DNA of 64,000 nucleotides from Squalus acanthias (Eukaryota). Under the pieces are notes generated by a model. That model saw nothing but the letters and a program-made list of their open reading frames with translations, searched no databases and had not been told where the DNA came from. The stretch spans positions 88,724,001 through 88,788,000 of the forward strand of contig CM059432.1 of assembly GCA_030390025.1 (NCBI GenBank), read 5' to 3'. This document shows positions 1,965-62,759 of this stretch, in pieces. Position 1 is the first letter of the stretch, and every line of letters begins with the position of its first letter. The translations under genes and the position numbers were made by a program.

Positions 1965-4199
1965 AACAGAGAGAAATATTAAGGTCAAAGCTTGATTCAG
2001 AAAGGAGAGAAGCAAAGCTGGAATTAGAAAGCAGAAAATTAGTAAGTGAGTTTGGAAGGCAGAGAAAACAAAGGATAGAAAATGAACAACAAAGAAGTTT
2101 GGCAGTGCTTAATGGTATATACTTCAATGCAAGCAGTCTAGTGAATAAGGCAGATGAACTGAGGGCACGCGTGGAAGTATGATATCATAGCTATTACTGA
2201 AACATGGCTGAAAAAAGGGCAGGAATGGCAGCTCAACATTCCTGGTTACAGGGTTTTCAGACGAGATAGAGAGGGGGATAAAAAAGGAAGGGGTCGCAAT
2301 ATTGGTTTAAAGAAACAATTATAGATGTGAGGAGGGATGCTATGTTAGAAGGATCATCAAATGAGGCCATATGGGTTGAAATGAAGAACAAAACTGGGCA
2401 ATCACACTGCTAGGAATGTACTATAGACCCCCAAATAGTCAGTGGGAGATAGAAGAACAAATATGTAGGCAAATTTCTGAGAAGTGCAAAAACAATAGGG
2501 CAGTAATAGTGGGGGATTTCAACTACCCTAATAATAACTGGGATAGAATCAGTGTAAAAGGTATAGAGGGTACAGAATTCTTAAAATGCATTCAGAAGAA
2601 CTTTTTTAGCTAGTACGTAGCAAGCCCAAAAAGAGAAGGGGCAGTTCTGGACTTAGTTTTAGGGAATGAAGCTGGGCAGGTGGAAGGGGTATCAATGCAT
2701 TTTGGTGGTCGTGATCATAATTCAGGTAGATTTAGCGTAGTTATGGAAAAGGACAAAGATGGACCAGGAGTAAAAGTTCTCAATTGGGAAAAGGCCAATC
2801 TTACTAAGCTGAGATGTGATTTTGCAAAAGTGGACTGGAAACAGCTACTTGACGGTAAATCAGTGTCAGAGCAGTGGGAGGCATTCAAGGAGGAGATAGT
2901 GAGGGTTCAGAGCAAATATGTTCCCACAAAGAAAAAGGGTGGACTCCCAAATCTAGAGCCCCCTGGATGTCAAGGAGCATACAGGGTAGGATAAGGCAAA
3001 AAACGGAAGCACCTGTCAGATACCGAGAGCTAAACACTACAGAAAGCCTAGAGGAGGACAGAAAGCGCAGGGGTGAAATTAAAAAGGAAATTAGGAAAGC
3101 AAAGAGAGGCCATGTAAAAATATTGGCAAGTAAAATCAAGGAAAACCCAAAGATGTTTTATAAATACATAAAGAGCAAGAGGATAACTAAAGAAAGAGTA
3201 GCGCCTATCAGAGATCAAAAAGGTAACCTGTGTGTGGAGGCGGAATTGTGGGTTTGGTTCATAATGAATACTTTGCGTCTGTCTTCACAAAATAGAGAGA
3301 GATGATGCAGACATTGTAATTAAGGAGGAAGAGTGTGAAATATTAGATGAGATAAACATAGTGAGGGAGGAAATATTAAGGGGTTTAGCCTCTTTGAAAG
3401 TAGATAAATCGCCAGGCACGGATAAAAAGTAACCCAGGCTGTTAAAAGAAGCAAGGGGGGAAATAGCGGAGGCTCTGACTATCATTTTACAATCCTCTCT
3501 GGCTACAGGTGTTGGTGCCGGAGGACTGGAGGACTGCTAATGTTGTAACGTTGTTTAAAGAGGGAGAAAAGGATAGACCGAGTAATTGCAGGCCAGTCAA
3601 CCTAACCTTGGTGGTGGGCAAATGATTGGAAAAAATTCTGAGGGACAGTATTAACCATCATTTAGAAAGTCACGGATTAATCAAGAACAGTCAGGATGGA
3701 TTTGTTAAGAGAAAGTTGTGTCTGACTAACTGATTGAATCTTTGAGGCGGTAACAAGGAGGGTTGATGAGGGTAGCACGTTTGATGTAGTCTACATGGAT
3801 TTTAGCAAGGCATCTGACAAGGTCCCACACGGCAGATTGGTCAGGAAAGTAAAAGCCCATGGGATCCAAGGGAAAGTGGCAAGTTGGATCCAAAATTGGC
3901 TCAGTGGCAGAAAGTGTTTTTGTGACTGGAAGGCTGTTTCCAGTGGGGTTCCGCAGGACTCAGTACTAGGTGTCTTGCTTTTTGTGGTATATATCAATGA
4001 TTTAGACTTCAATGTAGGGGGCATGATTAAGAAGTTTGCAGATGATACAAAATTGGCTGTGTGGTCGATAGTGAGGAAGAAAGCTGTAGACTGCAGAAAG
4101 ATATCAATGGACTGGTCAGGTGAGCAGAAAAGTGGCAAATGGAATTCAATACGGAGAAGTGTGAGGTAATGCATTTGGAGAGGGCTAACAAGGCAAGTG
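1965..4199 (+). mobile_element. CR1 LINE ORF2, 5' part (APE endonuclease + RT), decayed; interrupted by the LTR element
   Basis: Translated fragments YFNASSL, AITETWL, YYRPPN, IVGDFNYP (APE endonuclease) and MDFSKASDKVPH, SGVPQDSVLG, FADDTK (RT), with many stops and frameshifts. The left boundary is approximate. Confidence 0.93.
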
Positions 4200-5141
4200 T
4201 GTAAAGTTTCCAAAATTTGCTGATCCCCCCAAAAAAAATCTAAAGGGAAAAAATAAGGACTTTGGAACTTTAAAGGAACATGTCTGGACATGTACAACAC
4301 GTGGATCTACCTCTGTGAATAGCAGGCTTGAGATTGCATTGTCTGGGAATTCAAAGCCCAGCAAACATTAACATTTGGACAATAGGCCCTGGGAGAAGGC
4401 CGCCCCACCCAAAACACAGAGCCCATAGAAATGCTAGGCCCAGCAAGGAACCCAAAGCATGAGAACAATGCAAGCTTCCATGGAACAACAGCTCAACAGG
4501 ACGCAGGCCATTTGATTTGGTTTAGCATAGTTGAAGGCCCATCAAAATTTAACAAGACAATGAACAGGCCTCACCTGAAAACTCAATGCATTACGAAACC
4601 AGTTTTCGTGAGGAGTTTTGTGGGGGGTGGGGGAGAAAAAGGACTATAATTGCAGCAGGACCCAAGATTTCTTTCTCTTTTGACTCGCCGACCACGCTGG
4701 AACAACGCTCCCTCTCAGCTCTGCCCAGAAGCCACATGGTAAAGGAAGACATTCGATGACCAGAATCACCATCAACTTACCTGGCTGGATTTCATACTGT
4801 TAATACCCCTGTTTGGTGAGCATTATCCCTGATCTCCTGAAACCGAAACCTAGCTAGAAAGTGGGATTTTTGGGAGGGATAAAGGTTTTTCTTGTATACT
4901 GTCATTTTCCCTTGCCTGTAACCGTGTGTTCCCCAAACCTGTTTAAGTGTGAAGTGTGTTTAAGTTTGTTACCTTTTAATTTTAATAAAAGTTATAGTTC
5001 TTTCATCGGAACCTGTTGTCTACTGCATCTTTATTCACAACCCCTAAATAAGTCCAAGTTTTGAACCTGGGGAGTGGGAGCGAATTCGAACCGCTCACTG
5101 AGTCAGGGAAAGGCTGACCCCTACCACAACCACCCCCTACA
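4200..5141 (+). repeat. 5' LTR (942 bp)
   Basis: Starts TGTAAAG and ends CCTACA. TATA-like CTATAAT near 4644, AATAAA at 4984-4989. Near-identical to 10895-11844. Confidence 0.96.
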
Positions 5142-5144
5142 AAA

Positions 5145-5164
5145 TGGCGACCGTGGCAAGGACT
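5145..5164 (+). promoter_or_regulatory. Primer binding site, tRNA-Arg(TCG)-like
   Basis: TGGCGACCGTGGCAAGGACT lies 3 nt after the LTR end. It resembles the complement of the tRNA-Arg(TCG) 3' end as I recall it (TGGCGACCGCGGCAGGACT), with one substitution and one extra A. Confidence 0.7.
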
Positions 5165-5216
5165 TGGCAAAAGGGGTTGTGAAGCAGTAGACACTGATTT
5201 GGAAGAGAGAACTGTA

Positions 5217-6944
5217 ATGGAAGAGAGGATTTCAGATTATGTATTCAGCAAAGTGAATATGGAAAAGAAGTGGGTCACTAATCTGTCAAAAACTGGGCGC
5301 CCGGTAGATGCAGCAGCTAAATGGACAGAAGGGAAGGATCATAAAAAATCCTTAGAAAAGGCAGTCTGGCTGATGTGCTTCAAGAAACAGATCCAACTTT
5401 TGGACAGACTCGTTGAAGCACAGGCAGCCGAGATTCGGGAGTCAGCCCTGGAAGTCCAAACAAAGGCCCTAGCAGGGGAGAAGTTACTGTTAGCATTGCA
5501 GGCTCTAAACCAGGAAAGGGTGCAGTTAGTGGGGGAACACAAGACCCGGCAGGATTATTTACAGTGCCAGGTCACTGAGGCCAAGAACAATGAGCTGAGG
5601 TTGCGGGAAAAGAATGCCCGCCTGGCAAAACAAGTAAGAGAGCAGGAGGAGACAGTAAAAGGCTTACAGGCAGCCTATAAGGTAATGAGTGCACAGGGGT
5701 TTGAGGATGCGGACCATGGCCCCTGCCAGAAGCAGATAGAGAGTCTCAGCCTTGCTCTAAGGAAGGCAAGAGGCGTGGTGTGCCTCATAAGCCCAAGTGC
5801 AGCCCAGGTCGACTTTACAGGGAACCTGGGGAGAACGGTTCAGACACCAAAGATAGCGCCAAGGGACGACCCGGTTGAGGAGCGGGAGGGCCCACGACCA
5901 CCACCCATAGCGCCAAGCTTTAGCGCAGTCTGGCAAGAAGAAGGGGTGGAGTTAGGGGCAGAAGCTGAGGTGGAAAAAACCCCGCAAGAGAGGCTGGGAC
6001 TGGGGCCGATGTGCCCGGCCCGGCAGGAAAGGTTTGGCCCACCCGCTGATAACGGGGATGCGGGACCCCTCCAAAGCCAGTTCGTGGCTCCCCACAGTAT
6101 ACAACAGCTTAGGGTTATGGTAAGCCACCTGAGTAAACTCACCCAACAAGGGGACCCGTCAGTTCACTTCATAGAGGTAGAATAGGCAGCAGGCATCAAC
6201 GGCTGTGACGATGCCGAGATGGCAAAAATGCTCCTGTTCTCACTGGACAGCCGGCTATACCAGTCTCTCTCTGCTGAGAGCAAGAGAGGACAGAATGGCT
6301 ATGCGGCCATCAGAGAGGAAGTTTTAGAGGCCATGGGGATGAATGAGGGAAGTCCTTTCTCCCGGGTGGAGAAAACAGTGCAGCTCACAGGAGAGACCCC
6401 ACAGGCTTTCGCAGACAGGCTGTGGCCCGTGTACAGGGGTGCTTGTGGTGGGGATCTTAACAGGGCTCACCTAAACCGGGACGAGCTGGCCCACTGGCTC
6501 CGTAGCCTAGTGGCAAACAGCTTGCCTCAGATCAAAACCCAGGCTGAGCTTTGGTTTGACCCGAAAGACCCTCGGGTCACCGAGGAGGCAGTGGTCAGAC
6601 AGCTGAACCTGGCCAACCGGAACGGGAGAGGGGCGGAAGAGCCCCCACAAAAAGGGAAAGTACATGAAATAAAACCCGGCCAGAGTAGGAAGGAGTGGCA
6701 TCAGGAAGGGAATAACCCTTCCAGCACAAAGCTTAACTGTTATGGGTGTGGGAAGGATGGTCACTGGAGGAAGGAGTGTAAGAATCCTTGGAAGGATAAC
6801 AAGGGAAAGAATTCCTCAGCCCCAGCCCAAAAGGCAGAGACAGGGATCCCTCCCGCCACGGTCGAGTCATTTTTGGACACCATGAGGTCCCTATTGACTG
6901 GCCCAGGGAAGGTAGCAGCAACCCCATACAACCCAGACCTATGA
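5217..6944 (+). CDS. gag: Gag (~575 aa: N-terminal coiled-coil, Pro-rich linker, capsid-like region, one CCHC zinc knuckle); one in-frame TAG at 6183-6185
   Basis: ORFs 5199-6185 and 6219-6944 are in the same frame, separated by a single stop. The knuckle CYGCGKDGHWRKEC (CX2CX4HX4C) is at 6738-6779. Position is directly after the PBS. Confidence 0.9.
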
Positions 6945-8009
6945 CTGGAACCAGCGCAGCCTGTCTACCTGTGTCCCCTTGAAAGACACGCACAGGAAGA
7001 GACCTCTTGTAAGGAGGCCAGGTTAAATGAGCAGGCTTTACGGGAGGAGAACGCCCGCTTAATGGGGAAAGTAGGCGGGCTAGAGGGGCAGCTTAGAGAC
7101 ATAAAGGCAGCCTACAGGGTAGCCAGGAGCAGGGAGTATGAGGATTTAAACCATGGGCCCTGTGAGGAAAGGATAAAAGGTCTGACCCAAGCCCTATCCA
7201 AAGCCAGAGGGATGGTTTGCTCAACAACCCCGGGGGAATTCACCACCCCGCAGTTGCAAGCCATGGTAGCAGAGTTGACCAAATTAAAACAGAATAGAAA
7301 CCCTCAGCCTGCAGCAGGACCAAATTCACAGACTGCACAAGCAGGGGCGGTGGCCTGTCTTGAGGGAGGAGTCACCCAGGCCCCTGTTCAAACCACCCCA
7401 ACTCTCTTCTGGGACTCAGGTGGGGAGGAGGAGGAGCCCGAACCAGATAGCCCCGCCCCCGACCCAGGTTTTGAACCTGGAGGCGAAAATCCTCAGCCTG
7501 CAGCAGGAGAAAATTCACAGACTGCACAAGCAGGGGTGGCGGCCTGTCTTAGGGGAGGGGCCACCCCACCCACCGTTTGGGACATTCCCCCAATCCTCTG
7601 GGATTTAGAGGAGGAGGAGCCCGAACCAGATAGCCCCGCCCCCGACCCAGGTTTTGAACAAGCACCAGGCTGCGAAGAGTCACCTGACCCTGAAACAGGT
7701 TTAGAAGAGGTACAGACTGAGGATAGAAATCCCCAGCCAGTGGCAGTGGAAGATTCACAGACCACACAACAGGGGGCAGTGGCTCGTGTTAAAGACCCAC
7801 CAGCCAGAGCCCCTAGAAGGTCCCCACGTACGCCACAGCCAAAGAAACCGTGGTCACCGGCTCCCCAATTTAAAAGGGCCGCCCCTCAAGCCAGGGATCG
7901 ATCTGAGGACAGAGGTTCCTGGCCAGCAGCCATAGGCTGCAAGGGACAAAAGGTACAGGACAAGGCCACACCAAAGGGAGTAGTGTGCTGCAGCCCGAAC
8001 AGGGTTTAG
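6945..8009 (+). CDS. ORFX in the pol slot: open frame continuous with gag after TGA; second Gag-like coiled-coil, acidic Pro-rich repeats, basic tail
   Basis: No stop from 6945 to 8006 in the gag frame (first ATG 7062). Segment 7014-7220 aligns without gaps to Gag 5577-5783 (33/69 identical by hand count). No polymerase motifs. Confidence 0.75.
   Translation: MEPAQPVYLCPLERHAQEETSCKEARLNEQALREENARLMGKVGGLEGQLRDIKAAYRVARSREYEDLNHGPCEERIKGLTQALSKARGMVCSTTPGEFTTPQLQAMVAELTKLKQNRNPQPAAGPNSQTAQAGAVACLEGGVTQAPVQTTPTLFWDSGGEEEEPEPDSPAPDPGFEPGGENPQPAAGENSQTAQAGVAACLRGGATPPTVWDIPPILWDLEEEEPEPDSPAPDPGFEQAPGCEESPDPETGLEEVQTEDRNPQPVAVEDSQTTQQGAVARVKDPPARAPRRSPRTPQPKKPWSPAPQFKRAAPQARDRSEDRGSWPAAIGCKGQKVQDKATPKGVVCCSPNRV
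7298..7790 (+). repeat. Coding tandem repeat, 189-bp period, two copies plus a partial third
   Basis: CCTCAGCCTGCAGCAGGA at 7302 and 7491. The peptide NPQPAAG.NSQTAQAG...EEEEPEPDSPAPDPGFE occurs twice, with a partial NPQPVAVEDSQT near 7727. Confidence 0.9.
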
Positions 8010-8253: not shown

Positions 8254-10547
8254 ATGAAGGGGGGCATACTCCTACTCGCTCTGATAGGAATGAGCGCTGG
8301 GAGGCGAGGTGACGTGGAGGACTCCCACATTTTTGGGTGCTCAGGAGAGAGAGCACCGGTTGTGACTGCGGGTGGCAGCAAGCGAGGCGTGAAGGAGCTC
8401 GCTACCTATTCCCACGTGGGAAGATGGCCAGGGTGGCTGGGATCTAACTCCACCCGATACTCCAGTCAGACCGGGCTCACCTACGGGGAGGCCTCCCTCC
8501 CCTGTCCCAGCATACAGGTTGTAGCCACTCGGGTCGGGGTCACTGAGGGGAAACGCGTGTGCCTGACCTGCAGAGGACAGATTCCCCTGGGAAGGTGGTG
8601 GTGGCTCAGGAAGCTGAGCAGAGACATGGGGGACCGTACAGCTGACTGGGAGCGACTGGGGAATGACACCCATCGGACCATTACAGGGGACCATAGGGGG
8701 GTGAGCGTGTGCTGGGACAAGTGGTGGAAATCGAACAGGGGATTTATGTCTGCATGTGGGGGTCGCGGAAGGCCTGCCCCACGGGCATATCCATTATCTT
8801 TTCCGCAGCATGGCTGGATAAGGGGAAGGGGGTGGAATGGGATTCCCACCTACACACTTGCATAGTCCTGCCCTCTCCAGCCCCAGTCAAGGCCACTGAA
8901 CTCGTGGCAAACGCCCGTAAGCCCCTGCCCATGACCCAGACAGCAAGGACACACACAGAGACGTGCCCTACCACCACCAAGGGACCAGGGAATGGGCTGG
9001 TACTAGTGCCAACCGAAAAGGTGCTATACCAGGGGGTACACTATGCGGTAGCTTCCGTGATCCTAAACCTCACGGAGGTACACTTACCTGAGTGGTGCCC
9101 CAAAGAGATGGAACAGCTATACCAGGCCCTGTTCAGAGAAATGTTCAGGAAGTTCTACGAGTTCGATTTCGCAAACGTAGACAAAGCAGAACTGTACACT
9201 GCGCACACTGAGTATTTTAGCAATACAGGGAGACAAAGGAGGGGGGCCTGGAATGATATTTTTACAGCATATAATACAGGGTCCTCTGTCATCAACAGTC
9301 TGGATGACATAGAATTGCAGACACAAATAAACGATTTAAAAACACAATTGCGCAAAATCTTAATGGATGAAAATACAGTAGTGGGCTCAGAGTTACACGA
9401 GGACCAAGCTATGACGGTCCATTTAAAAGAAATCATTGCTGAGCTGGAAAGGCACGCAAAGACGGTAAATGCACTCATACGGGAGGACAGGAATGCATCA
9501 GACCAGGCTGCACAGAACGAGATGTGCGTACTGTACGGGGCATGGTTGCTAGGCGAGGGCCGGAGTAACCTGGAGGATTTAAAGCAAGGTTTAGTCTCCT
9601 CCTGGATCAGCAACAAGCACCTCGCAGCCCTCCACCCATTTGAGAATTCACTTAGCCTGTGTCAGCTCCGTCTAGCCTCTGAAGCCTACCCTGTACCAGT
9701 AGATTGTGGGTGTTCCAATCACACTATCATGGGGATAGTGGTGAGGATGCCGGTCATGGGTGGGACTGCCCGACCCGCACCGGTATACAGGGTGGAGAAC
9801 ATTGGAGTCATTCAAGGGGGTGCACATATCCGTTTCACAGCGGTCCTACCTTATGTCATAAAGTGGGAGCACGCTATGACAGGTACTGACCTCTCCGGGT
9901 GCCGGTGCCGGGGTTCACACATAATACTGTGTCCCCAGCACTTGAACGCCTATTCTAAACCACAGTGTGGGTTTAAAGCTGCGGGCGCACGACCTATAAA
10001 CTGTACCATGGAAGTAATGGCACAAGACCATGTTTCCCCACAGGTAGCATATATAGGAGGTGGGACATATTGTGTCACCACCAGCGCGCCTCACTACCAG
10101 TATGGACAGCATACCTGGTGTCCAGTAAGTGACAGCAGTTTCTGCTTTAAACCCGAGGCAGAAGTTCAAGTGGCCCAGGAACGGATTGTCCCCATTCCTG
10201 AACCCTCCACTGTTCACCTCACTGTAACACAAAATTTCACCAGCCTGCAAAAATATGTAGCACATTTTGGCTACGAAATTCCCCCTCTACCAGAACGCCT
10301 TACCAAGTTACTAAAAGCTGTAGAGCTATCACAAAAACATTTCTACACTTTAGAACAGAATACACACGAGATAGAGAGAGAGATTCAAGGTATCACAGTC
10401 CCACCTTGGTGGGACATCTTCGAAAACATAGAGGTCCCTTCATGGGTCAGAATGGCTTCCCACCTCCTCGTAGTTTGCCAACTGGGAATAGTATTGTACC
10501 TGTTGTGCACTCAGTGCAAGGGAAAGGGCAGAATACTACAGTTCTGA
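8254..10547 (+). CDS. env: Envelope glycoprotein (~764 aa after repair): signal peptide, Ig-like domain, Thr/Pro linker, F-type class I fusion protein, TM; one frameshift near 8720
   Basis: Signal peptide MKGGILLLALIGMSAG, furin site RQRR at 9231-9242 followed by GAWNDIFTAYNTGSSVINSL, heptad repeat, Cys-rich block, second heptad, TM ASHLLVVCQLGIVLYLLC and several N-X-S/T sites. ORFs 8227-8865 and 8709-10547 join if one base is added near 8720. Confidence 0.88.
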
Positions 10548-10894: not shown

Positions 10895-11844
10895 TGTAAT
10901 GTTTCCAAAATTTGCAGATCCCCCCCAAAAAAATCTAAAGGGAAAAATAAGGACTTTGGAACTTTAAAGGAACATGTCTGGACATGTACAACACGTGGAT
11001 CTACCTCTGTGAATAGCAGGCTTGAGATTGCATTGTCTGGGAATTCAAAGCCCAGCAAACATTAACATTTGGACAATAGGCCCTGGGAGAAGGCCGCCCC
11101 ACCCAAAACACAGAGCCCATAGGGATGCTAGGCCCAGCAAGGAACCCAAAGCATGAGAACAATGCAAGCTTCCATGGAACAACAGCTCAACAGGACGCAG
11201 GCCATTTGATTTGGTTTAGCATAGTTGAAGGCCCATCAAAATTTAACAACATAATGAACAGGCCTCACCTGAAAACTCACTGCATTACGAAACCAGTTTT
11301 CGTGAGGAATTTTGTGGGGGGTGGGGCGGGGGGGGGAGAAAAAGGACTATAATTGCAGCAGGACCCAAGATTTCTTTCTCTTTTGACTCGCCGACCACGT
11401 TGGAACAACGCTCCCTCTCAGCTCTGCCCAGAAGCCACATGGTAAAGGAAGACATTCGATGACCAGAATCACCATCAACTTACCTGGCTGGATTTCGTAC
11501 TGTTAATACCCCTGTTTGGTGAGCATTATCCCTGATCTCCTGAAACCGAAACCTAGCTAGAAAGTGGGATTTTTGGGAGGGATAAAGGTTTTTCTTGTAT
11601 ACTGTCATTTTCCCTCGCCTGTAACCATGTGATCCCCAAACCTGTTTAAGTGTGAAGTGTGTTTAAGTTTGTTACCTTTTAATTTTAATAAAAGTTATAG
11701 TTCTTTCATCGGAACCTGTTGTCTACTGCATCTTTATTCACAACCCCTAAATAAGTCCAAGTTTTGAACCTGGGGCGTGGGAGCGATTTGAACCGCTCAC
11801 TGAGTCAAGGGAAAGGCTGACCCCTACCACAACCACCTCCTACA
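10895..11844 (+). repeat. 3' LTR (950 bp)
   Basis: TGTAATG...CCTACA. About 18 substitutions and 3 small indels versus the 5' LTR by hand comparison. Confidence 0.96.
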
Positions 11845-12760
11845 GGGAATACACAATAAATGGTAGGATACTGAGAAGTGTACTGAAAAGATACCTTGGA
11901 GTGCATGTCCACAAATCCCTGAAGGTAGCAGGACAGGTAGATAAGGTGGTTAAGAAGGCATACGGGATACTTTCTTTTATTAGCCGAGGCATAGAATGTA
12001 AGAGTCAGGAGTAAACACAGAAATTGCTGGAAATACTGAGCAGGTCAGACAGCATCTGTGGAGAGAGGAATAGAGACTCTGTTTCTCTCTCCACAGATGC
12101 TGCCTGACTTGCTCAGTATTTCCAGCATTTTCTGTTTTTATTTTGGATTCCCATATCCACAGTATTTTGCTTTTGTATAAGAGCAGGGAGGTTATGCTAG
12201 AACTGTATAAAACATTAGTTGGACCACAGCTAGAGTACTGCGTATAGTTCTGGTCACCACATTACAGGAAAGATGTGATTGCACTGGAGAGTGTACAGAG
12301 GAGATTTACAAGGATGTTGCCAGGACTGGAGAATTTTAGCTATGAGGAAAGATTGGATAGGCTGGGGTTGTTTTCTTTGGAACACTGGCAGCTGAGGGGA
12401 GACTTGATTGAGGCGTATAAAATAATGAGGGGCCTCGATAGAGTGGATAGGAGGGACCTATTTCCCTTAGCAGAGTGGTCAATAACCAGGGGGCATAGAT
12501 TTAAAGTAATTGGTCGAAGGTTTAGAGGGGAGTTGAGGAGAGGGGTTCTGGAACCCACTGCCTGAAAGGGTGGTAGAGGCAGAAACCCTTAGTGCATTTA
12601 AAAAGTACTTGGATATGCACTTGAAGTGCCGTGATCTACAAGGCTACGGACCAAGAGCTGGAAAGTGGGATTAGGCTGGATAGTTCTTTTTCGGCCGGCA
12701 CAGATACAATAGGCCAAATGGCTTCCTTCTGTGCAATAAATTTCTATGATTCTATGATTC
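11845..12760 (+). mobile_element. CR1 LINE 3' part (continuation of 1965-4199) with TTCTATGA tail
   Basis: Resumes at EYTING. ALESVQRRFTRMLPGL...YEERLDRLGLFSLE is CR1 ORF2 C-terminus. Ends TTTCTATGATTCTATGATTC. Confidence 0.93.
12011..12176. repeat. Short palindromic insertion (Penelope-derived hairpin-type repeat) inside CR1
   Basis: Arms ACAGAAATTGCTGGAAATACTGAGCAGGTCAGACAGCATCTGTGGAGAGAG and CTCTCTCCACAGATGCTGCCTGACTTGCTCAGTATTTCCAGCATTTTCTGT. Flanked by an imperfect duplication TAAGAGTCAGGAG / TAAGAGCAGGGAG. Confidence 0.75.
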
Positions 12761-14465: not shown

Positions 14466-16350
14466 ATGATGGTACAACAGGGGAGAGAGTGTGCATCAAG
14501 GTTCTCAGATGCAGCACTGGAGGCCTAGGCACAGGAGGTAGATAGGAGGAGAGAACATTGCAAAGTGCACTGGGAGCAGGTAGCCACTGTGGTGAATGCC
14601 AGCAGTGTAGCCCCAAGGATGTGGATGCAGTGCAGGAAGAAGTTTATTGAACTCACATGAGTGGTCAAGGTCAGTTAATTCATCTTCAAATGTCATATCC
14701 CACCATCTGCACCATAAGCCTCACACGCTGCTCAATACACCACACCCCCATCACTCACCTACCAACAATCTCTAGCAATCACGACTCATACCTCACAATC
14801 ATAGCTTCAGCTCACCCTCACATGCTTACCACTGCTGTAAGCCTCACACCCACATCTCACAGCTCACACACACTCCCAGCTATTCAATGATGACAGGCAC
14901 AGTAGACAAACACATTACACCACACTCACTGACACATTTTCCTTTCTCTTACAGGAAAAGGTGGTTTATAACCAGTGCCAGCCGCACCTAATAGGTGGGG
15001 GATAGGCATGCCTGCATAACCTAACCCCATGGAGGAGACGGTGCTGGTCATTCTTGGAAGGGGCATCGCTGAGCCCGTGGCTAGCAGCGGGGCTGAAAGG
15101 ATACAAGATGCCGATATCCTCATACGTAATCCTCCTTCTCACATCTTGATTTACAAGTTGCACATGGTGTAAGCATGCACCTCTTGCTTTCCCCCCCTCC
15201 CCTCACCACAAACCTATCCTTGTGCCATTCTCATTTCAGAGACCCAAGAAATCCAACCTGCCCAGCCAGTGGTGCAAGAATAAGAGGGAGAGGAAAGTGA
15301 TGAAGAAGGAGAAACACCATCACTCGATCTGACACTCACAGCCACCAACTCAGATACTAGCACTGCGCAGAGTTTAAAGGGTAGCTTAGAGGTGGGATCA
15401 GTACGTGGTGAGTCACTGGGCACGAGTGGGCTGCAGCCAGAGCAGGGGAAAAGGGCAGCACAGGTGCCAGCTCCCCAGAGGGTGAGGTCACACACAAGTT
15501 CTGCTGCAGAGAACTCAGATGAGGACTTTGATGGGCAGCCTATAGAAGAACGCTGATGGGTATGTTCAATGAAATGCTTGGTGCATTGGCAGGCCTGCCA
15601 GAAAGCCTGTGTGGAATGTCAAGGAGCATGGATGAGTCCGGCACCAACCTTGCACAGAGCTTTGCACAGAGCTTGGAGTTAATGATTTTCAGCGTGGAAG
15701 GGGTGGGCAGATACATTCGCACACTTATGGACCCAACCAGGATGAAGCGTCTGATGGCTGATGTCTCAGCTTCCATTGGAGCACAAGCCGAAGCCACCCA
15801 ACGTCTGAGTGCTGCAGTGGAAGCTTAGACTGAAGTCATGCAAGCTCAGACTGTTCTCATGCAGGCTCAGCTTGCTGCCATGCAAGCTCAGGCTGCCGCC
15901 ATCGTGGCTATGTTTACCAGTGTGGAAAGGGGCTTGCAGGGTGTCACTGCAGTCCAGCAATCTGTCCTCCAACAGATAGCTAGGAATGTTGAGGCGCTGC
16001 CCCGGGGGAGTGGCAGTGGCTCCGTGGAGCAAGAACCTGCTGTCCTCTCTCAGGACGACAGCATTCATCCTCCCACCACTGTCACTCCATCAGTGCCCTT
16101 GCTGTTGCCTGTCAACCAGCTTGCCCAGACTGCTGCCGCCCATGCCGAGGTAGTGCAGTCTTCAGCTGGGCTTTCTAGGCCCAGAGCTGCTCGAGGTCAT
16201 CCTGCAAGGCCATCTGCAGTCTCCCCCACTAAAAGTCAGCAGCCTTCCACCAGCCATGCTGCAGCCATTGGGGTAGCACTTCGTAGGAGCACTAGGACAG
16301 GCAAAGGCACATGCAAAACAGGCACTAAGGGAATGCACAAGGGTGATTAG
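14466..16350 (+). pseudogene. Harbinger Myb/SANT-like DNA-binding gene, three exons, decayed
   Basis: RFSDAALEA...WEQVATVVNASSVAPRMWMQCRKKF in the first exon. Later exons are homologous to the minus-strand gene at 47390-49261 and end at TKGMHKGD*. Confidence 0.8.
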
Positions 16351-17396
16351 TTGACTTTGTTATGTAATATTGGATGGGATAGTGTTGGATTGGAATGTTT
16401 ATTTTGTGGTGGCTTTTATTTCATCATTGTGGCCAAGAGGACGCTGTGATGGTCAGTAACAGGGGGATGGTAAGGTGTGGGACTATTGTTGAATGGAGAA
16501 TTGGGGTTGTGGTCACTGGTACCACCATTGGATGAGTCGATCACGGACAGCCCGGGCAAAAAGGGGCTGTCTTGGTTGCCTCCTCCCTTCCGCTTCCTCC
16601 TCTCCCACCTCCTGCTCCACCTCCTCTTCTGCTTTCTCCTCTTCCTCCTCCTCCTCTTCCTCCTGCTCCTCCTCCTCTTCTGCTTTCTCCTCTTTCTCCT
16701 CCTCCTCTTCCTCCTGCTCCTCCACCTCAGCTTGTTGGCGTATGCCCGGTGGCAAGGCCTGGGCCCTCATTATGGCAAGGTTGTGGAGCATGCAACAGAC
16801 CACAATGAATCTTGAGACACATTCTGATGAGTACTGCAGGTTTCCTCCAGAGCGGCCCAGGCAGCAGAAGCATTGTTTAAGAATGCCCATGGTCTGCTCT
16901 CTGAGATTCCATGTGGCAGCATGGCTCTCATTGTATGCATACTCCCCATGTGTGGTTGAGTTGCAGAGCGGAGCGGAGTCATGAGCCAGGAGTCAGCAGA
17001 TAGCCCTTGTCGTCCAGTAACCACCCTCTGGTTTGTCGTGGTGGTTCATAGACTGAGGGAACGGCAAATTGGTACAGAATTAAAGCATCATGACTGCTGC
17101 CAGGATTACAGGCATTCACCATCATGATGTGCTGGGCATGGTCGCACACCAACTGCACATTTTGCGAGTTGTAACCTTTGTGGTTGTGGTACAGCTCAGC
17201 ATTTAGATGCGGCACCTGCAAAATCACGCGCATGCAATTGATGGTGACCTGCACCATGGGGAAGCCCGCTTTCCTGGCAAAGCCACGTGCGCACTCTGCC
17301 TGCTTCTCTCTGGTCAGAGAGAAGAGAGTGAAGTCCCCTCTCCTGGCATAAAGAACGTCTGTCACCTCACTTATGCAGCAATGGACAGTGAACTGG

Positions 17397-18202
17397 TGTA
17401 AGAAATCGTGGATTGAAAGAAATAATAGCCTGTTACGGGTTCCCTAGATCAGCAGGTTGCCTAAGTTGATGAAACAGAAAGATTCCAGTCATGTCAGAAA
17501 AATAGCTGTACAGAGAGTTGAATTACGAGGTCAGAACACAAAAACAGGCCTTTGAGTGGGCATAGCTAGGCCTGATAAGGGATGCAGCAAGGAGCTGTAG
17601 GATAAACAAGCTGTCTACAAGAGGGCAAGAAGACCTTTAGAACAGAGATAAGGAGAAAAATGACCTCATGAGGCTGGGAGGGGGTTGTCATAGGTAGCCT
17701 CTCCCTTGTAATTGGACAATAGGATGGGGAACAAATGATTAACACCAGGTAATCACCAGCCCACCAAAATAACTATAAATATAGACGACCGAGAGAGGAA
17801 ATCAGGCAGTTAGGGGTGAAGGCTTCCCTGAGGTGGTTTAGGCCTAACACCTTGACCAAGTTTAGCCTCTGAGGTGGAAACCAATGCTGGCATATGCCTA
17901 ACACCTCCAACAGCTCAAGGGACGAATCAACAGAGGTGACTGCTGTTACCGGCTGCAGAGACCCGCTGACCCGAGACCTCCCGCTGTCTCATCGGGCATC
18001 TAGCCGTCCGTCCAGTCGTGGCATTCCGCTTTGGGAGTCGTAGCTTGCTCTCTATTGTCACGGGTTGTATGTCTATTATACTCAGCTTAAACCAAATGTA
18101 ATATCTGATTATGCTTTAAAACTGTAGCTCTTTAATAAAACGCCTTACAACTCCTAAGACCCTTTGGGTAATCTGTGTGTGACCTGTGATCCAAATCTTA
18201 CA
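17397..18202 (+). mobile_element. Solo LTR (806 bp), TSD CTGG
   Basis: Termini TGTAAGA...TCTTACA with CTGG duplicated on both sides. TATA-like CTATAAAT near 17773, AATAAA at 18134. The transposase rejoins across it. Confidence 0.92.
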
Positions 18203-18461
18203 CTGGGAGATGTTACAGATGTCGCCTGCTCCAGCCTGCAAGGATCCCGACGCGAGGAAATTCAGGGCCACGGTCACCTTCACAGCCACTGGCAGCACTG
18301 TCCTTGCTCTGATGTGAGGCTGCAGGTCTGGTTGCAAGAGGTGGTAGAGTTCTGTGAGCACGTCCTTTGTAAAGGGCAGACACCTCACACACTGCTCCTG
18401 GCTCAGGCTGAGGTAAGAGAATTGCTCTCGGAAGACCCTAGGTGGGTAAGGACTCCTGCTG

Positions 18462-20168
18462 TGTAGAATTCGCAATATATCGCGATTTTATTAATAAGGA
18501 GAAAAACACAGAGTTTCGTTCAAACAGCTTTTATTTCAGCAGAATGCTGTCAGGTTTTCAAAGTGGACACAAGCAGCTTGTAAAATGGCCGCCGCACCTC
18601 GTGACAGAACATTCTAGACTTTTCGACAGGCAGACAAGATGGCGTTCCAATAAACATTTGTGCAAGATCGATTAAGACTCAGCACATTGAAGATAATACA
18701 CGAGACATCATGGGTTTACAGTATACACATAAATACTGAAATCGGTCCCCCAGGTACGAATAAGAGCTATTGTACCAAGTAATCAAGAACCCATCCAAAG
18801 ACATTAATATGTAAAATCCCAACGACTCTACGATGAGAGAGCCGTTAGCGGGTAGTTACAGAAAACACCTGGAAGCCCAAAACCCCTCCAGGGAGAACAC
18901 CGACCGATTAAACAATGGGAGAAATATTAACAGGTACTCAGACATTTACGAGTAGCCCCGAAACCCATTAAAACGAAGATCACCCTATACAAGACATTTT
19001 GAGCGCCAAACCCTAACAAAAGAAAAGACATTAAGGTTGGGCGGGAAAACGGAAGATTTTGCACTATAATTGCAAGCTCCAAACCGTCCATCGCTCTCTT
19101 ATTCGGTTGACTCTTATCTTGCTGGTGTTTATCCTCGTGGCTGCTCTTGACTCGCCGTCTTGTTCCTGCTTGCCTCGTGTCTCTTTTCAAAAGACTGTTG
19201 AACTTTACGATCCGCTCGAATCTACCCCGGGTCGTGTCGCGAAGACCTGTGTAGAACTGGGCTCTGAAGCCTGGAAGCGGGCGCACCATCCCGATAAGTC
19301 GGTAAACGGTGTTGGAACCGAAGGCCCGAGATGAGATGAGATGAGATGAGATGAGATGAGAAGAGGAGAAGACCATACTTATCGCCACGGTCAGTAAGCT
19401 CCGACTGCGCCTGTAGGTCGAATAGACATTTTCCTTGCCAGGAAGACTTCTTCGAGTTTTACAGAACTGACAGGAAGACTATTTTTCGAATTTTATCGAA
19501 CCCGTGCGAGGGCACAGGAAGACTCTTTTTTGAGTATAGTCGGAACTCCGAGGACAACACAGATCTTCATGACAGCAGACGTTCCAGCCTGCTAGCCGGA
19601 GCAGAAACGAGTAAACAAGTGGGGCCAGGAGACCCCCTGATCGACACGTGGGCGCTGCGGTGAAAAACATCCGATCAGAGTTTTCGGAATTCTCCGAGTT
19701 ATCACGAGTGGTGAGCATGAGTCTCGAATCCTACGAATCTAGCTTAGGACAGATATTGATAGGGGAGGGTTTTAAGTATTAAGGATAATTGTAATGTGTG
19801 CCCCCATTTACGATGTGTCGTTCGTTCCTCGTTTCCCTGAAATTAGTTACATAACTGCGTGTAAGATTATACTGTCATTAATCTGTGCTTATGACATGTA
19901 TTTCGTAATCTTAAGTAATATGCAATAAAGATTTTCCATTTCGTACCATTCAACCGAGTCTACCTGAGTTTCATCTCCATTACTGCTCTCGCATCTAAGT
20001 CCAGTGTCTAGAACCGTAAGGGCGAGTGGGTCGAACCACTCACAGGTGTCTAGTGCTCCCAGACTGGCTGGAGACCAGAACAGGCAACAAGGCCTAAACC
20101 CGCACTAGCACCCGGGCTGCACAGAGCCACACGAATCTCACAGGCTGAGAGACAGAAAAACCCTTACA
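18462..20168 (+). mobile_element. Solo LTR (1707 bp), TSD GCTG
   Basis: TGTAG...TTACA with GCTG duplicated. AATAAA at 19924, internal (GAGAT)n near 19328-19360. A second copy lies at 50793-52464. Confidence 0.92.
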
Positions 20169-36864: not shown

Positions 36865-37786
36865 ATGTGGAGATGCCGGCGTTGGACTGGGGTGGACAAA
36901 AATGAGAAGTCGCACAACACCAGGTTATAGTCCAACAGATTTATTTAAAATTACAAGCTTTCGGAGCTGTCGCCCCTTCTTCAGGTAGGGTAGCTGTGAG
37001 AGAATCTCCCAGAATTCACAATATAAACACAGAAAAAATGTATTCGAATCTTTCCCTACATCAAAGACACACTAAGAGCACAGCCAAGACAATGAGATGT
37101 GCCCCAGGGGGTCCAACGTGTCAAAACACCTGCTGGCTGCATATCCTCTCCATTTGGGTTTAAAAAAAAACCTGGAAAGACCGGCCATGATGTCAAGTCA
37201 CGTTCTGTATCGTGACATGAACCCGATATCGCGATTGAGGCCATCCTCATGAGTGCGGAACTTGGCTATCAGTTTCTGCTCTATGATTTTGCGCTGTCGT
37301 GTATCCCGAAGGGGAACACTTCAGCAGTCAGGGGCATTCAGCCTCGGATCTGCGGGTAAGCGTTCTCCAAGGCGGCCTTCGGGATACACGACAGCACAAA
37401 ATCATAGAGCAGAAACTGATAGCCAAGTTCCGCACTCATGAGGATGGCCTCAATCGCGATATCGGGTTCATGTCACGATACAGAACGTGACTTGACATCA
37501 CGGCCGGTTTTTCCAGGTTTTTTTTAAAACCCAAATGGAGAGGATATGCAGCCAGCAGATGTTTTGACACGTTGGACCCCCTGGGACACATCTCATTGTC
37601 TTGGCTGTGTTCTTAGTGTGTCTTTGATGTAGGGAAAGATTCGAATACATTTTTTCTGTGTTTATATTGTGAATTCTGGGAGATTCTCTCACATCTACCC
37701 TACCTGAAGAAGGGGCGACAGCTCCGAAAGCTTGTAATTTTAAATAAATCTGTTGGACTATAACCTGGTGTTGTGCGACTTCTCAT
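36865..37786 (-). mobile_element. Truncated Penelope-like element with inverted pLTR (fold-back), 13-bp TSD CATATAGATTCTG
   Basis: Arms 36902-37312 and 37376-37786 are reverse complements. Contains the PLE C-terminal peptide EQKLIAKFRTHEDGLNRD. TSD at 36852-36864 and 37784-37796. Confidence 0.92.
37704..37736 (+). ncRNA. Minimal hammerhead-ribozyme-like motif in Penelope pLTR
   Basis: CTGAAGA-A-GGGGC-GACA-GCTCC-GAAA-GCTTGTA contains the core boxes CUGANGA and GAAA, a 5-bp stem II and palindromic AAGCTT. A mirror copy lies at about 36952-36984 on minus. Confidence 0.65.
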
Positions 37787-45897: not shown

Positions 45898-47078
45898 ATG
45901 GGGGCTGTACTAACATGGGGCGTCGTCCTCCAGCTTCACCTTTGGAGGCAGCAGAGGCGCAGAGAGAGAGAGTGGCAAACGTGGCCAGAGGGAGGAGGGC
46001 CAACAGGGCTCTGCACAGGAGACCTTACCCTCCCAGGGTATTCAGGGAGCATTTCTCCTATATCCATTTGTCCGATGAGCAGTGTTTTAGAAGGCTGCAT
46101 TTCAGCAAGGAGGTGGTCACAGAGCTCTGCCACCTCCTGCAACCAGATCTGCAGCCTCAGCTCAGGACCAGGACATCTCTGTCAGTGACAGTGAAGGTGA
46201 CGGTGGCTCTCAATTTCTACGCCAGTGGCTCCTTCCAGGCTTCAACTGTGGATATTGTGAATATCTCCCAGTTCGCCGTCCATTGTTGCATTCAGGAGGT
46301 GACAAATGCTCTATACCAAAGGAGAAGGGAGTACATCTCTTTCCCCATGACCCGAGACAAACAGCGTGAACGCGCATGTGGCTTTGCTAGGATAGCGGGC
46401 TTCCCCATGGTTCAGGGCGCCATTGACTGCACGCATGTGGCATTGCGGGCACCTCATGAAAATGCAGAGGTTTTCCGCAACCGCAAAGGCTTCCACTCTC
46501 TCAACGTCCAGTTGGTTTGCAACCACAGACAGTGCATCCTCACCGTCAATGCCCGCTATCCTGACGGCAGCCACGATGCCTTCATCCTGCACCAGACTGG
46601 TGTCCCAGACCTCTTCCAACCACCGCGTCAACCACGTGGCTGGCTCCTCGGGGACAAGGTTAATCCACTCTGCACCTGGCTGATGGCACCACTCCGTAAC
46701 CCCAACACTCCTGCTGAGCTCGCCTATAATGAGAGCCATAGCGCCACCAGGAACCTCATTGAACAGACGATCGGCATCTTGAAACAATGGTTCCGGTGTC
46801 TTGACCACTCTGGAGGAGCCCTGCAGTACTCTCCTGAATGAGTATCGGTTTTCATTGTTGTGTGCTGCATGCTTCACAACCTCGCAATTATGAGGACTCA
46901 GCCATTGCCACCAGGGATTGGTGCACCACTTCAGGAGGAGGAAGAGGGAGAGGAGGAGGAGGAGGAGGAGGCGGAGGAGGATGAAGAGGAGGATGAGCAG
47001 CAGCAACGTGGGAGGGAGGCGCTCAATGTTGCCTCTGCAAGGGCCGTCCGTGAACGCCTGATAAGACACCGCTTCTGA
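45898..47078 (+). pseudogene. Harbinger DDE transposase, nearly intact (TGA at 46839-46841; probable early frameshift)
   Basis: GAIDCTHV (D), LLGDK (D), RNLIEQTIG (E), [21 protein letters not shown]. The frame continues after the stop with CCMLHNLA and poly-Glu. Confidence 0.93.
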
Positions 47079-47389
47079 TCAATGACAGAGAAGAAGGCTT
47101 TTGGGATGAACAAGCACATCATCACAACCATCCCGCAGCTCCTATTGCCGGGCAAAGCTCCAATGATTCAAATGAGCAAAGTTGTGAGGTTACAATAAAA
47201 AAAATTATTTATCTGACAAACTGTGTCTTATTTATTCAGCGCAACCAATAACAAACAAACACAACAATTCATTAACTAACAAAACTGATTCTTACCACAT
47301 CGAGATAAGTGTAAACAGAGTGAATTAATATATTAACATGAACATCAAACTTTGGGACAAACATTCCCCCCATTTGTTGGAGAATTTTT

Positions 47390-49261
47390 AGTTATTCGCC
47401 CTTCGAGGGTGATCTCCCTCCCCTTCGCACTTACCCCCTTCCCACCCTACTGCTCCTCCGTAATGTGGCCCTAGTGGCTGCAGCAAAGCTGGCGGAAGGC
47501 TGCTGAATGTCAGATCCAGAGACTGCAGATGCCTTGAAGGACGCCCTCGACCAGCTCTGGGCCTGGAGGGCCCGGCTGCAGACTGCACCAACTCTGCATG
47601 GGCGGCAGCAGTCTGGGATCGCTAGGTTACAGGCTGTGGCAAATGCAATGGCAGAGTGGCACTGGTGAGAGCAGGAATGCTGTCATCCTGAGAGAGGACA
47701 GCACCTTCCTGCTCGACCGACACACTGGCACTCCCCTGGGGCAGTACCTCAGCATCCAGAGCAATCTGCTCAAGTACAGATTGCTGGCCTGCTGTGGCAC
47801 CATCAGATCCCCGGTGGACAATGGGCAACCAGCGATGATGGCAGCAGTCAGCGCTTGCATGACGTCAATCTGAGACTGCATGAGAGCAGTCTGAGATTGG
47901 ATGGCACCAGCCAATGACTCGATTTCAGCACTAAGCCGTTGCGTTGCCTTGCTCTGTGCTGCAGTAGATCCTGCCACCTGACCCATTACACGCGGCATGG
48001 ACTCTGGGTCCCCACGGTCTCCCTGCAATTCAACCATCCTCTGCAATGAGGCAAGGATGGGTTCAAGGGTTTGCGCACAGATGACAGCTGTGCTGGCAGC
48101 GCACTCCTCCACGCTCCTAGCCAGTCCATCCATGCTGTCGGGCACCCTTGCCATTGCACCCATGAGCTCCGTATGCATGCTCTAGGCCTGGGTATTCATG
48201 GCTGCTATATCGATGTCCTCATCCAAGTCCTGTGCAGCAGAACTCGTGCGTGCACTCCCCCTCCGGGGAGATGGCCCCCGAGCTTACCTTCCCCCATGGC
48301 GTTGCTGCAGGCCGCTGGGTCCCAGAGCTTCACCCAGATCAGATCCAAACCCCCCACTCCCCTCCAGTGAACGCGTGGCCCCAGTGTCGGATGTGTCGAC
48401 CTCGGGAGATGCAGGCGGTGAGGCGCGGGCTTCGTCTTCCTCCTCCTCTCACGCGTCGCTCCACTGGGAGGCTGAGGATCAGGCTGCTCAGCTGGTGGCT
48501 CACTATCTGAAGGCAGGAAGGTACAAGAGTGGCTTTAACGTGAGGGCAGGAAGCGAGTAAGGAATGAAGACAGTATAGTTAGATGGAAAGTGTAAAAGGC
48601 TGGTGTTGTGAGGGGGAAGTGGTATGAGAGAGGAGAGAAAGCTGATGAGCATACCATGTTGTCCCCAAGGGGGTCAACCTCTCCAATGGCCACAGCACCG
48701 ACGACATGACTGGCAATGAGTCTGTGGACTCTCTCCTCCAATTGTGTGAGGGGGTGCAGCTCCACCTGTCCTCCTCCCGTTTGTTGTTGCTCCCTCCGAT
48801 TATGTGAAAGCTTGGCCTGCAAGAAAAAGGATAGCGTGTGAGTGAGTGTGCAGCCATGTGTTTGGCAGATGTGCCTACCATAGTTGAATAGCAAGGTGTG
48901 GGATGTGCATTTGACTTTTCTGAGATGGGCATAGTTGTTGGGTATTTAAGTATTTACACTGTCTGTGCACAGAGTGAGGTTGAGATGGTCGGATGTAAAG
49001 GTTTTTCAAGCAGGTGCTCACCCTGACCACCCGAGTGAGGTCGTTGAACTTCAGACGGCACTGTGTTCTTTGGACCAGGCTCCTCGATGAAACGTGCTGG
49101 GCAATCTCCCTCGACACCCTTGTAAACTCCCAGGGCAATGGCCTCCTGCCAGTCTCTAGAAACAGCACTGCCCGTCGGTGTTCCACAGCGCCAACCAGAG
49201 CCACCAATGCCTGGTCGCTAAACCGGCAAGCTGTCTCCCTGGGCCTCTGAGTATCCATCAT
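47390..49261 (-). pseudogene. Harbinger Myb/SANT-like gene, three exons (about 49261-49022, 48816-48655, 48506-47390), decayed
   Basis: RFSDQALVALVGAV...QCRLKFNDLTRVVR|GTGAG, TTGCAG|AKLSHNRREQQQTGGG...|GTATG. The coiled-coil-like third exon has stops and frameshifts. Confidence 0.85.
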
Positions 49262-60654: not shown

Positions 60655-62759
60655 CAATCTGGCAAAACTTCTGTACAAACTGGAGCGGGTGTCCCATTTC
60701 GTGGTGGTCTGCTGCATGCTTCACAAATTGGCCAGCCCTTGCCATCAGGGATTGTGGGATCACCTCAGGAGGAGGACGAGGAAGAGGAGGAGAAGAAGGA
60801 GGAAAAGGAAGAGAAGCAAGAAGAGAAAGACGAAGAGGACGAGGAGGGAGGGAGAAGGCAGGCAGCCAATCCCACTTCCGGATTGGCTGTCCGTGAACGT
60901 CTCATCAGACTCCAATTCCAATGAATGAAACCCCAGATCCCCGTTGCTCACCACATCCCCATCATACAATCCCACTGTCACGGAAAATCACAGTACCCTC
61001 CTGGGCACAAAGCTGAAATGAGAGACACCACAAAAGATTCCAAACAAAATTAATACATTTATCAAAAATCAATTTACACATATTTACAGTGATGATATGA
61101 ACTAATCACCCTTGTGGAATCCGTTAGTGCCTGTCATTCGGGTGTCCTTTCCTGTCCTAGTGCTCCTACGATGTGCTACCCCAGTGGCTGCAGCATGGCT
61201 GGTGGAAGGCTGCTGAGCTTCCATAGGGAAGACTTCAGATGGCCTTGCAGGACGACCTCGAGCAGCTCTGGCCCTAGAAGGCTCGGCTGTAGACTGCACC
61301 ACCTCGGCATGAACGGTAGTCGTCTGGGCTGGCTGGCTGACAGACAGCGGCAAGGGCAATGCATAGTGGCAGAGCTGGGAACAGGAATGCTGTCCTCTTG
61401 AGAGAGGACAGCAGGGTCCAGCCCCACTGCCACTCGCGCCTGAGCAATCTTAGCAATCTAATGGCGCCTAGATTCCTGGGCTGCTGAGACACCCTGCAAG
61501 CCCCTGTCAAGAGTGGTAAACCCAGCCACGATGGCAGCAGTCTGAGCTTGGGTGGCATCAAGCTGAGAATTCATGAGAATGGTCTGCGTTTGCGCTGCAG
61601 CACTAAAGAGGTGGGTCGCTTCCCCCGTGCTGCAATGGCAACCGTGACATCGCCCATCACATGCACCATCATGTCTGTGTTGACACTGTCTCTTTGGAAG
61701 TCTTCCATCATTTCCAGCCTGGAAATCCTGGGCTCCAAGCTCCTCATAGAGCCCCGTGTAATGTTGGAGGCGGACTCCTCCATGCTCCTTGACATTGCGA
61801 AGAGGCTCCCTGGTAGGCTTGCCATTGCACCTAGCAATTCGGTGTGTACGCCCATCACCCTTCTCCTGAAGGCCACCCCATGAAGGTCATCATCTGAGTC
61901 CTGTGCAGCAGAACTCATGCACAAATTTGCCCTCCAGGGAGCTGGTCCTCGAGCTACCTTTTCCCCCTGGCCTTGCTGCAGCCCACTCGTGACCGGTGCC
62001 TCACCCTGTGCAGATCCCGTTTCTACACTAGCCTCTAAAGTACGCACAGTGCCAGTTTCTGAGCTGAATCTGCGAGTAACAAATGCAGTGATGCTGTGTC
62101 TTCTTCTTCTTCTTCTTCCCCGTCGCTCTCATGCATTGCCTCGGGGAAAGGCTGCTCAGGTGCTTGTTGTTCATTTTCTGAAAGCAGAAAGGCACAAGAG
62201 TCAGGTTATGGTGAGGGAAGAGCGTGGCATCCAGATATCCATGCATACAGCATCAGCAGCTTGTAAGTGAGAAGAAATTATGGGATGAGGGGGAAGTGGG
62301 ATGTGAGAAGAAGGATTAGGAATGAGCATACCGTTGTTGTCCACAAGGGGTTCAACCTCGCCGGTTGCCACGGCCTCTACGATCTGCCGTCCAATTATCT
62401 CCAGCATTCTCTCCTCCAGCTGGCTGAGGTCGTGGATGTCAGCTGCCCCCCCACCTGTCTGCCGCTGCTCTCTCCAGTTATATGTGACCTTGGCCTGCAA
62501 GGGAAAGAGAAGTGTGTGAATGAGTGTGGAGCAATGTGTTTGAGTGATGTGCCTGCCATGGTTGAATAGCTGTCAGTGTGTGCAAGGTGTGAGATGTGCG
62601 TGTGAATGTTGCATCAGTGGTATGGTTGTGAGGGTGAAGTGAAGCTCTGATTGTGAGGTCTGAGTGTTGATGGGTCGAGATTGTTGGTAGGTGAGTGCTG
62701 GCAGTGTGGTGCATTGAGCAGTTTGTGGCAGGCATACTTCAGCTTCTGGTAATTGGTGT
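60655..62759. mobile_element. Harbinger remnant (transposase C-terminus on plus, Myb-like exons 2-3 on minus)
   Basis: ERVSHFVVVCCMLH plus acidic tail plus AVRERLIR. Minus strand AKVTYNWREQRQTGGG...LEERML and ...TNGFHKGD*. Confidence 0.85.

Follow-up and report, generated by a model that had tools for sequence, protein, structure and literature searches.

A 354-codon open reading frame in the place of pol in an LTR element of Squalus acanthias (positions 6945-8009 of the window, the whole stretch of 64,000 nucleotides that was analysed) is real and family-wide. It is neither a chance product nor an accident of a single copy, the latter because a 25-mer across its leader/insert junction has 338 genomic matches versus none for the reversed control; the other copies on which the original prediction depended do exist. 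Compared with pol-bearing siblings, the elements that carry this frame (hereafter, cassette elements) have about 3.6 kb of pol replaced by 312 nt. Our preferred reading, held with slightly better than even confidence, is that the cassette element is a pol-less, helper-dependent ERV whose mosaic read-through frame, running to the old pol stop, would aid its own RNA in cis.

Why defective retroviral elements often outcompete their helpers is mostly unexplained. The genome that we searched for copies (3.7 Gb) holds two independent fillers of the pol slot, which provide a natural and countable test of translation through the slot as a cis requirement. Our literature search found no description of this pol-slot cassette, which is not proof of its absence in print.

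Anatomy of the element and of its pol-slot frame

The window element is a 7.6-kb pol-less LTR element of the form gag-ORF-env, inserted in a LINE fragment, and the features described here lie on the forward strand. Its 5' LTR (4200-5141) and 3' LTR (10895-11844) pair with 923 matches, 4 gaps and 17 mismatches, the last being the 17 positions at which the two LTRs of this copy differ. The lineage A gag (5144-6944) encodes an N-terminal coil, a capsid and a CCHC knuckle (zf-CCHC, E 0.00095), and env (8254-10547) encodes a signal peptide, a weak Ig-like match, an RQRR site and a TM helix. Both genes are broken in the window copy, gag by a frame break near 5170 and a stop at 6183-6185, and env by a frame break near 8730. 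The gag ATG overlaps the primer-binding site (5144-5162), which we take to be of the tRNA-Arg type and which occurs in two variants among sibling copies. A clean 4-nt target-site duplication is absent in the window copy (4196-4199 and 11845-11848) and present in several siblings. Elsewhere, the window holds an inverted repeat at 36902-37786 (arms of 411 nt, 98% complementary, spacing 63 nt) and, at 15200-18500, a degraded transposase, presumably Harbinger-like, with Myb-like fragments, of which there are more copies at about 46700-48900 and 60800-62700.

Between gag and env, 6945-8009 reads without a stop for 354 codons in the frame of gag. A leader of 12 codons comes first, then 104 codons from foreign gag, and then an integrase C-terminal tail. 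The gag stop, in a TGA-CTR context (6942-6947), is in frame with pol in the siblings and is the likely read-through site; the same context precedes pol in siblings of lineages A, Y, D1 and D2 too. Four loci that match only the 3' half of the ORF are siblings that bear pol and share LTR, gag and env with the element (92-96% alike between element and siblings). Beyond the TGA of gag, the frame of these siblings passes through the shared leader into protease, RT, two RNase H domains and integrase, and ends in the repeats and basic motif that the ORF also has. Because these siblings read the same ends around pol, we assign the leader (6945-6980, the sibling match ending at 6980) to the start of the pol (protease) frame, and 7293-8009 to the integrase tail.

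The acidic, Pro-rich repeats of the tail (7293-7720) follow rve and SH3 domains in frame in L031, L033, L035 and L037, and their 63-aa units (7299-7487 versus 7488-7664) are 81% identical in nucleotides. The basic tail end with the natural pol stop (7721-8009) is about 96% identical in nucleotides to the pol-bearing L031 and L033. It contains the motif RRSPRTPQP (7815-7841), which recurs in the tails of lineages X, B and Y; the suspicion that this motif belongs to an integrase tail was correct, as it lies in frame after integrase in pol-bearing siblings. The form R(R/K)xxR(T/E)PQP(R/K)xxW (7815-7850) is kept in the otherwise unalignable integrase tails of four lineages. A Pfam search of the ORF gave no match, including none to RT, RH or IN.

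Upstream of the tail, 7014-7220 aligns without gaps to a distant homologue, the coil segment of the element's own Gag (5577-5783), at 33/69 amino acids and 131/207 nucleotides, and QLQAMVAELTKLKQ in the ORF pairs with QLRVMVSHLSKLTQ in gag, a match at the start of the capsid. The frame, this coil match, the 63-aa repeats and the RRSxR motif had all been reported in the original prediction, and all are present in the sequence. When the first 115 aa were searched against proteins of greater length, 228 candidates came back, none at E 0.001, which is weak evidence, and a profile of seven Gag N-domains found only generic coiled-coil matches in the PDB.

Donors, backbones and a second filler

On nucleotide identity, the coil insert is evidently a mosaic of two other pol-bearing lineages, D1 and D2 (91-100%); the element's own gag is only 61% identical to it. 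A motif search located nine D1 loci. A second search gave 34 matches, of which the 12 fetched represent a sister lineage, D2, and at least three of the unfetched ones are cassette variants. The first piece of the insert (6981-7052) is D1 gag, interrupted near 7011 by a gap of 33 nt that keeps the frame; 7014-7052 is identical at 36-39 of 39 nt to the seven D1 loci holding that stretch, and the piece is the part of the insert never lost in shared variants. The second (7053-7238) is D2 gag coil, with 171-176/186 nt in 10 of the 12 D2 loci versus 123-126/186 in D1 and 113/186 in the element's own gag. The third (7239-7292), joined after an in-frame linker deletion, is the D1 capsid start (51-52/54 nt in 9/9 D1 loci). 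All four non-homologous junctions are in frame: leader to D1, the 33-nt gap, D2 to D1 across the linker, and D1 to tail.

These identities bear out the proposal that the segment was recombined in from a related element and is closest to the gag of a pol-containing family, with D2 in the middle and D1 at the flanks. The other origin proposed, an old self-duplication, is rejected by the lower count for the element's own gag. Also rejected as donors were the gags of X, Y and B (at most 41% aa) and D1 as the sole source, the middle being saturated at synonymous sites (dS at least 1.5, dN about 0.17); the gag coils of the carrier backbones have at most 47% protein identity to the insert. A search with the leader plus native pol gave three matches, all cassette copies, and no exact leader parent. 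At L120:751-3021 (element strand) a D1/D2 recombinant gag occurs naturally; its crossover is similar, and its frame enters protease without a stop. It had been suggested that the donor family might be the helper, which is not likely, since each backbone has its own pol-bearing siblings.

The cassette is present in three backbones (A, X and B) with different gag and LTR, and its junction has 338 matches against 24 for the A-type pol junction, so that the cassette exists in at least 338 copies. For the analysis of copies we retrieved 99 loci from the first 100 exact junction matches listed; 36 have backbone A, 60 have backbone X and three are unclassified. Backbone B carries the cassette in two best-match loci. 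Backbone X is 63-75% identical to the window in gag and 69-76% in env, with an unrelated LTR and a different tail, and cassette identity across backbones is 91-99%. In a tree of 76 full-length cassettes one A/X change suffices (support 97/81). Because X copies hold the start of the A tail, we infer that the cassette moved from A to X. The crossing, between lineages whose gags are only 63-77% alike, shows that these lineages exchange pieces of RNA across large distances.

X-type native integrase ends number 210, with RNase H and integrase in 6/6 checked. Median divergence between paired LTRs is 1.8% in 17 A copies and 1.2% in 27 X copies, the latter median including partial LTRs and one false pair. 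About a third of A copies lack env; six short loci without env (L043, L047, L054, L067, L093 and L040) retain gag, the cassette and the tail with its RTPQP motif. At L039:836-3283 and L100, a pol-bearing lineage Y element is nested in the gag of a B-type cassette element. Contigs from public runs of two organisms bridge the ORF junctions (X5 record 25, 6362-7134; X4 record 19, 7105-7369; X2 record 10, 7156-7477), and that they derive from RNA is a guess.

We used tail sequences as controls on what fills the slot. The 53 A-tail matches on C1-C6 comprise 38 with the cassette, 14 with pol sequence and one unclear (classes assigned by position, 16 by fetching), and the 37 X-tail matches on C1 comprise 19 with the cassette, 15 with integrase, two with partial pol and one unfetched. 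An amplified plain deletion, sought in the 53 A-tail copies on C1-C6 and 36 X-tail copies on C1, was not found. Among 24 B-tail loci fetched of 113, one has the coil cassette, nine have an integrase end and 14 have another filler. This second filler consists of a D-type protease piece, an RNase H end and a linker leading into the integrase tail, with no Gag coil, and is open to the tail motif in 5/14 loci. It is seen at L211:595-1690 (element strand), L219, L220, L223 and L224, some with an A-related gag. One genome thus holds two independent multi-junction fillers, both in frame.

Conservation of the frame and of its amino acids

The TGA-CTR context is retained in 92/99 cassette copies. Seventy-six copies have the TGA, a tail anchor and a backbone that could be classified; in 42 of them the frame stays open from the stop to the tail motif, compared with 41 for an equal length of gag and none for either of the other two frames, in keeping with the expectation that the frame is kept across copies. 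No stop shared between cassette copies was found when we looked for one. A 1-nt loss at 7085 is common to L041 and L078, which lie on opposite sides of the tree.

Rearrangements point the same way. All ten shared later rearrangements keep the frame, versus 4/8 private multi-base indels (Fisher p=0.023); against microhomology nulls of 0.45-0.6, the ten give P=3e-4 to 6e-3. Shared here means seen in at least two loci, the ten were identified by eye, with homologous tails joined in some of them, and the private count leaves out four copies cut by other insertions. They comprise the A-to-X tail join with two shorter forms of it, one duplication of 69 nt, one deletion of 162 nt, two joins located after EDL, and three small changes (-9, +6 and -3 nt). 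Together with the four founding junctions, 14/14 are in frame. Microhomologies arising by chance fall in frame at a rate of 0.38-0.61 in the larger comparisons, and of up to 0.7-0.75 in the smallest (within the cassette, 6-7 nt), which have 23 and 4 cases. Because in-frame microhomologies are enriched, a mechanical cause can account for some of the bias, yet 10/10 by mechanics alone is unlikely.

Amino-acid constraint was gauged by comparing nonsynonymous to synonymous counts (N:S) among shared and singleton changes, with CpG sites excluded. The difference is significant for gag A (20:26 shared vs 116:35 singleton), gag X (60:65 vs 158:64) and env X (34:116 vs 251:119), and not for env A (7:3 vs 117:36). 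For the whole cassette, N:S is 22:10 shared vs 103:31 singleton (p=0.36, 89 copies); with 134 copies, p=0.022 and 0.155. Shared counts mark the A tail (22:12) and X tail (87:22) as unconstrained and the 3' part of the cassette (12:2) as free of amino-acid constraint, and in 134 copies 7152-7292 has 14:2. The exception is 7014-7097, with 7:11 shared vs 36:11 singleton in 134 copies (p=0.007 at three or more copies, 0.06 at four or more), a region chosen after the deletions had been seen. Amino-acid constraint is therefore weak and confined to the first half of the coil, and of the protein-level selection raised in the original prediction no strong form was found in these counts.

Readings of the frame and known systems

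We propose that template switching between co-packaged RNAs produced the mosaic frame. Because the gag stop sits in frame before pol, ribosomes likely read through the TGA and run to the old pol stop; read-through of the MLV gag stop is put at about 5% (PMC9143442). The open frame would then help, in cis, to keep the same RNA stable and to get it packaged by enzyme-bearing siblings. The cis benefit might be RNA stability itself, long 3' UTRs after gag being described as NMD targets (PMC9143442), or alternatively a Gag-tail protein that binds the RNA encoding it. Since frameshifted lineages are not amplified though helpers could supply proteins in trans, a requirement in cis is likely. Translation to the old pol stop heads our ranking because the feature common to both fillers is a frame that stays open as far as the integrase tail. 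Since another lineage has a filler without a coil in this slot, it is probably the open read-through frame that is selected rather than the coil. For the Gag coil, the most likely role is that of an in-frame spacer that is tolerated, its first 39 codons being somewhat constrained, and not that of an essential part; a pure spacer would not show the constraint seen in its N-terminal half. A more ambitious reading, which we regard as doubtful, is that of a mobile 0.35-kb pol-replacement cassette that turns any pol-bearing backbone with which it recombines into a successful parasite, the Gag-coil-integrase-tail protein replacing Gag-Pol in cis. If true, a module built from the gag genes of two lineages would serve three backbones differing in gag, env and LTR.

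The first rival to translation as such, and in our judgment an unlikely one, makes the second coil a working adaptor, through which the read-through protein would co-assemble with helper Gag, or bind membrane or Env, and win particles for its own RNA. Every shared deletion variant retains the first 39 codons, and one sub-lineage that has done well carries an in-frame duplication of them (+69 nt, 15/99 copies, one clean gap). The cassette has entered two other backbones, the coil of zebrafish Bik-1 Gag is reported to be required for membrane association (bioRxiv 2024.03.25.586437), and a single-sequence model of the insert predicts a long helix (pLDDT 87-96 over residues 11-60); a complex prediction of the Gag N-domain with the insert gave a score of 0.06 and a mark of 0.34. 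The N:S counts at 7014-7097 fit an adaptor as well, but the region was picked post hoc, the whole cassette gives the mixed p values above, and the synonymous changes could come from constrained donor gags. Moreover, half of the coil is dispensable, and the coil-free filler thrives in lineage B.

Somewhat less likely again is that nothing in the frame is selected, the element being a lucky multi-switch recombinant and a short parasite that hitchhikes, its frame kept open by the youth of the copies and by in-frame microhomology. The LTR pairs are indeed young, the microhomology nulls exceed one third, most of the frame is without amino-acid constraint, and cattle ERVs without functional genes are described as outcompeting their helpers (PMC10924933). 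However, chance alone sits poorly with founding and shared junctions that are in frame without exception, with two independent multi-junction fillers both in frame, with the failure of frameshifted and plain-deletion classes to amplify, and with a stop context conserved though no enzyme lies downstream.

We think it improbable that the borrowed gag DNA acts as RNA, as a packaging or read-through signal, with the open frame secondary. The high identity of the cassette across backbones would suit such a signal, and X-type changes give an 8-bp hairpin 55-70 nt past the stop, but this reading leaves the conservation of the frame unexplained. Over the 100 nt past the stop, four cassette copies have folding z-scores of -0.5 to -1.75, similar to those of pol-bearing controls, and conserved RNA structure past the gag stop was not significant. 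The hairpin is perfect at L066:3023-3040, where quasi-palindrome correction or RNA selection could have produced it. Retention by the host as a dominant-negative restriction factor was an idea of the original prediction, and poisoning of assembly by a Gag fragment is conceivable in principle. Such retention is very improbable given a dispersed family of hundreds of young copies whose private changes decay neutrally, a window copy whose gag is broken upstream, and no single conserved locus seen.

As to the family, gag, pol and env lie between two LTRs in the pol-bearing siblings L031-L038 (the window copy being without pol), RT_RNaseH is followed by RNase_H in L037 and L031 (sibling order PR-RT-RH-RH-IN), and Env has a hydrophobic N-terminus, RQRR as a variant of RXKR, and a TM helix. 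A PDB search with the RT gave p80 RT-RH and Pr125Pol chains, which we take to be MLV-type and foamy, at 225-194 bits versus 130 for Ty3 Gag-Pol, partly owing to a longer match. Env had no paramyxovirus F match among Pfam and PDB sequences, and its single-sequence model (pLDDT 33) was unusable. On layout, dual RNase H and Env motifs, the family fits the lokiretroviruses of Wang and Han (PMC7947760), which share LTR-gag-pol-env, a tether and second RNase H, and an Env that has a signal peptide, a basic site for cleavage and a TM; an RT nearer to retroviral RTs than to Ty3 may be a further point in common. The portions of that paper on which we drew describe no pol-slot cassette, their smc gene was not seen in the family here, and the terms shark, cartilaginous and Chondrichth- are absent from its main text. 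BHIKHARI Bik-1 and Bik-2 (bioRxiv 2024.03.25.586437) are likewise non-autonomous lokiretrovirus relatives with an N-terminal Gag coiled coil, but are described as encoding gag alone, env and a second frame being absent. In cattle, the ERVK[2-1-LTR] D-type (PMC10924933) is similarly a defective clade with a shorter, poorly alignable centre that outnumbers competent elements; it is described as having no intact ORFs, whereas here gag, the pol-slot frame and env are under frame selection.

The closest parallel is mouse IAP 1-delta-1 (PMC6466679), a non-autonomous ERV subtype that has lost pol and retains an in-frame fusion ORF; its fusion is reported to work in cis, and it outnumbers helpers among new insertions. 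In the family described here, too, enzyme domains are absent from the ORF, pol-bearing siblings with the same LTR are present, and the fusion frame is open across amplified copies. IAP 1-delta-1 is described as a plain 1.9-kb deletion fusing gag directly to pol. The cassette element, in contrast, has no single gag-pol deletion and keeps the gag stop, which is likely leaky; gag and often env are whole, the foreign gag insert comes from two lineages, and the cassette has moved between backbones, so identity with IAP 1-delta-1 is rejected. By analogy, then, the pol-slot frame behaves like IAP 1-delta-1 without being one.
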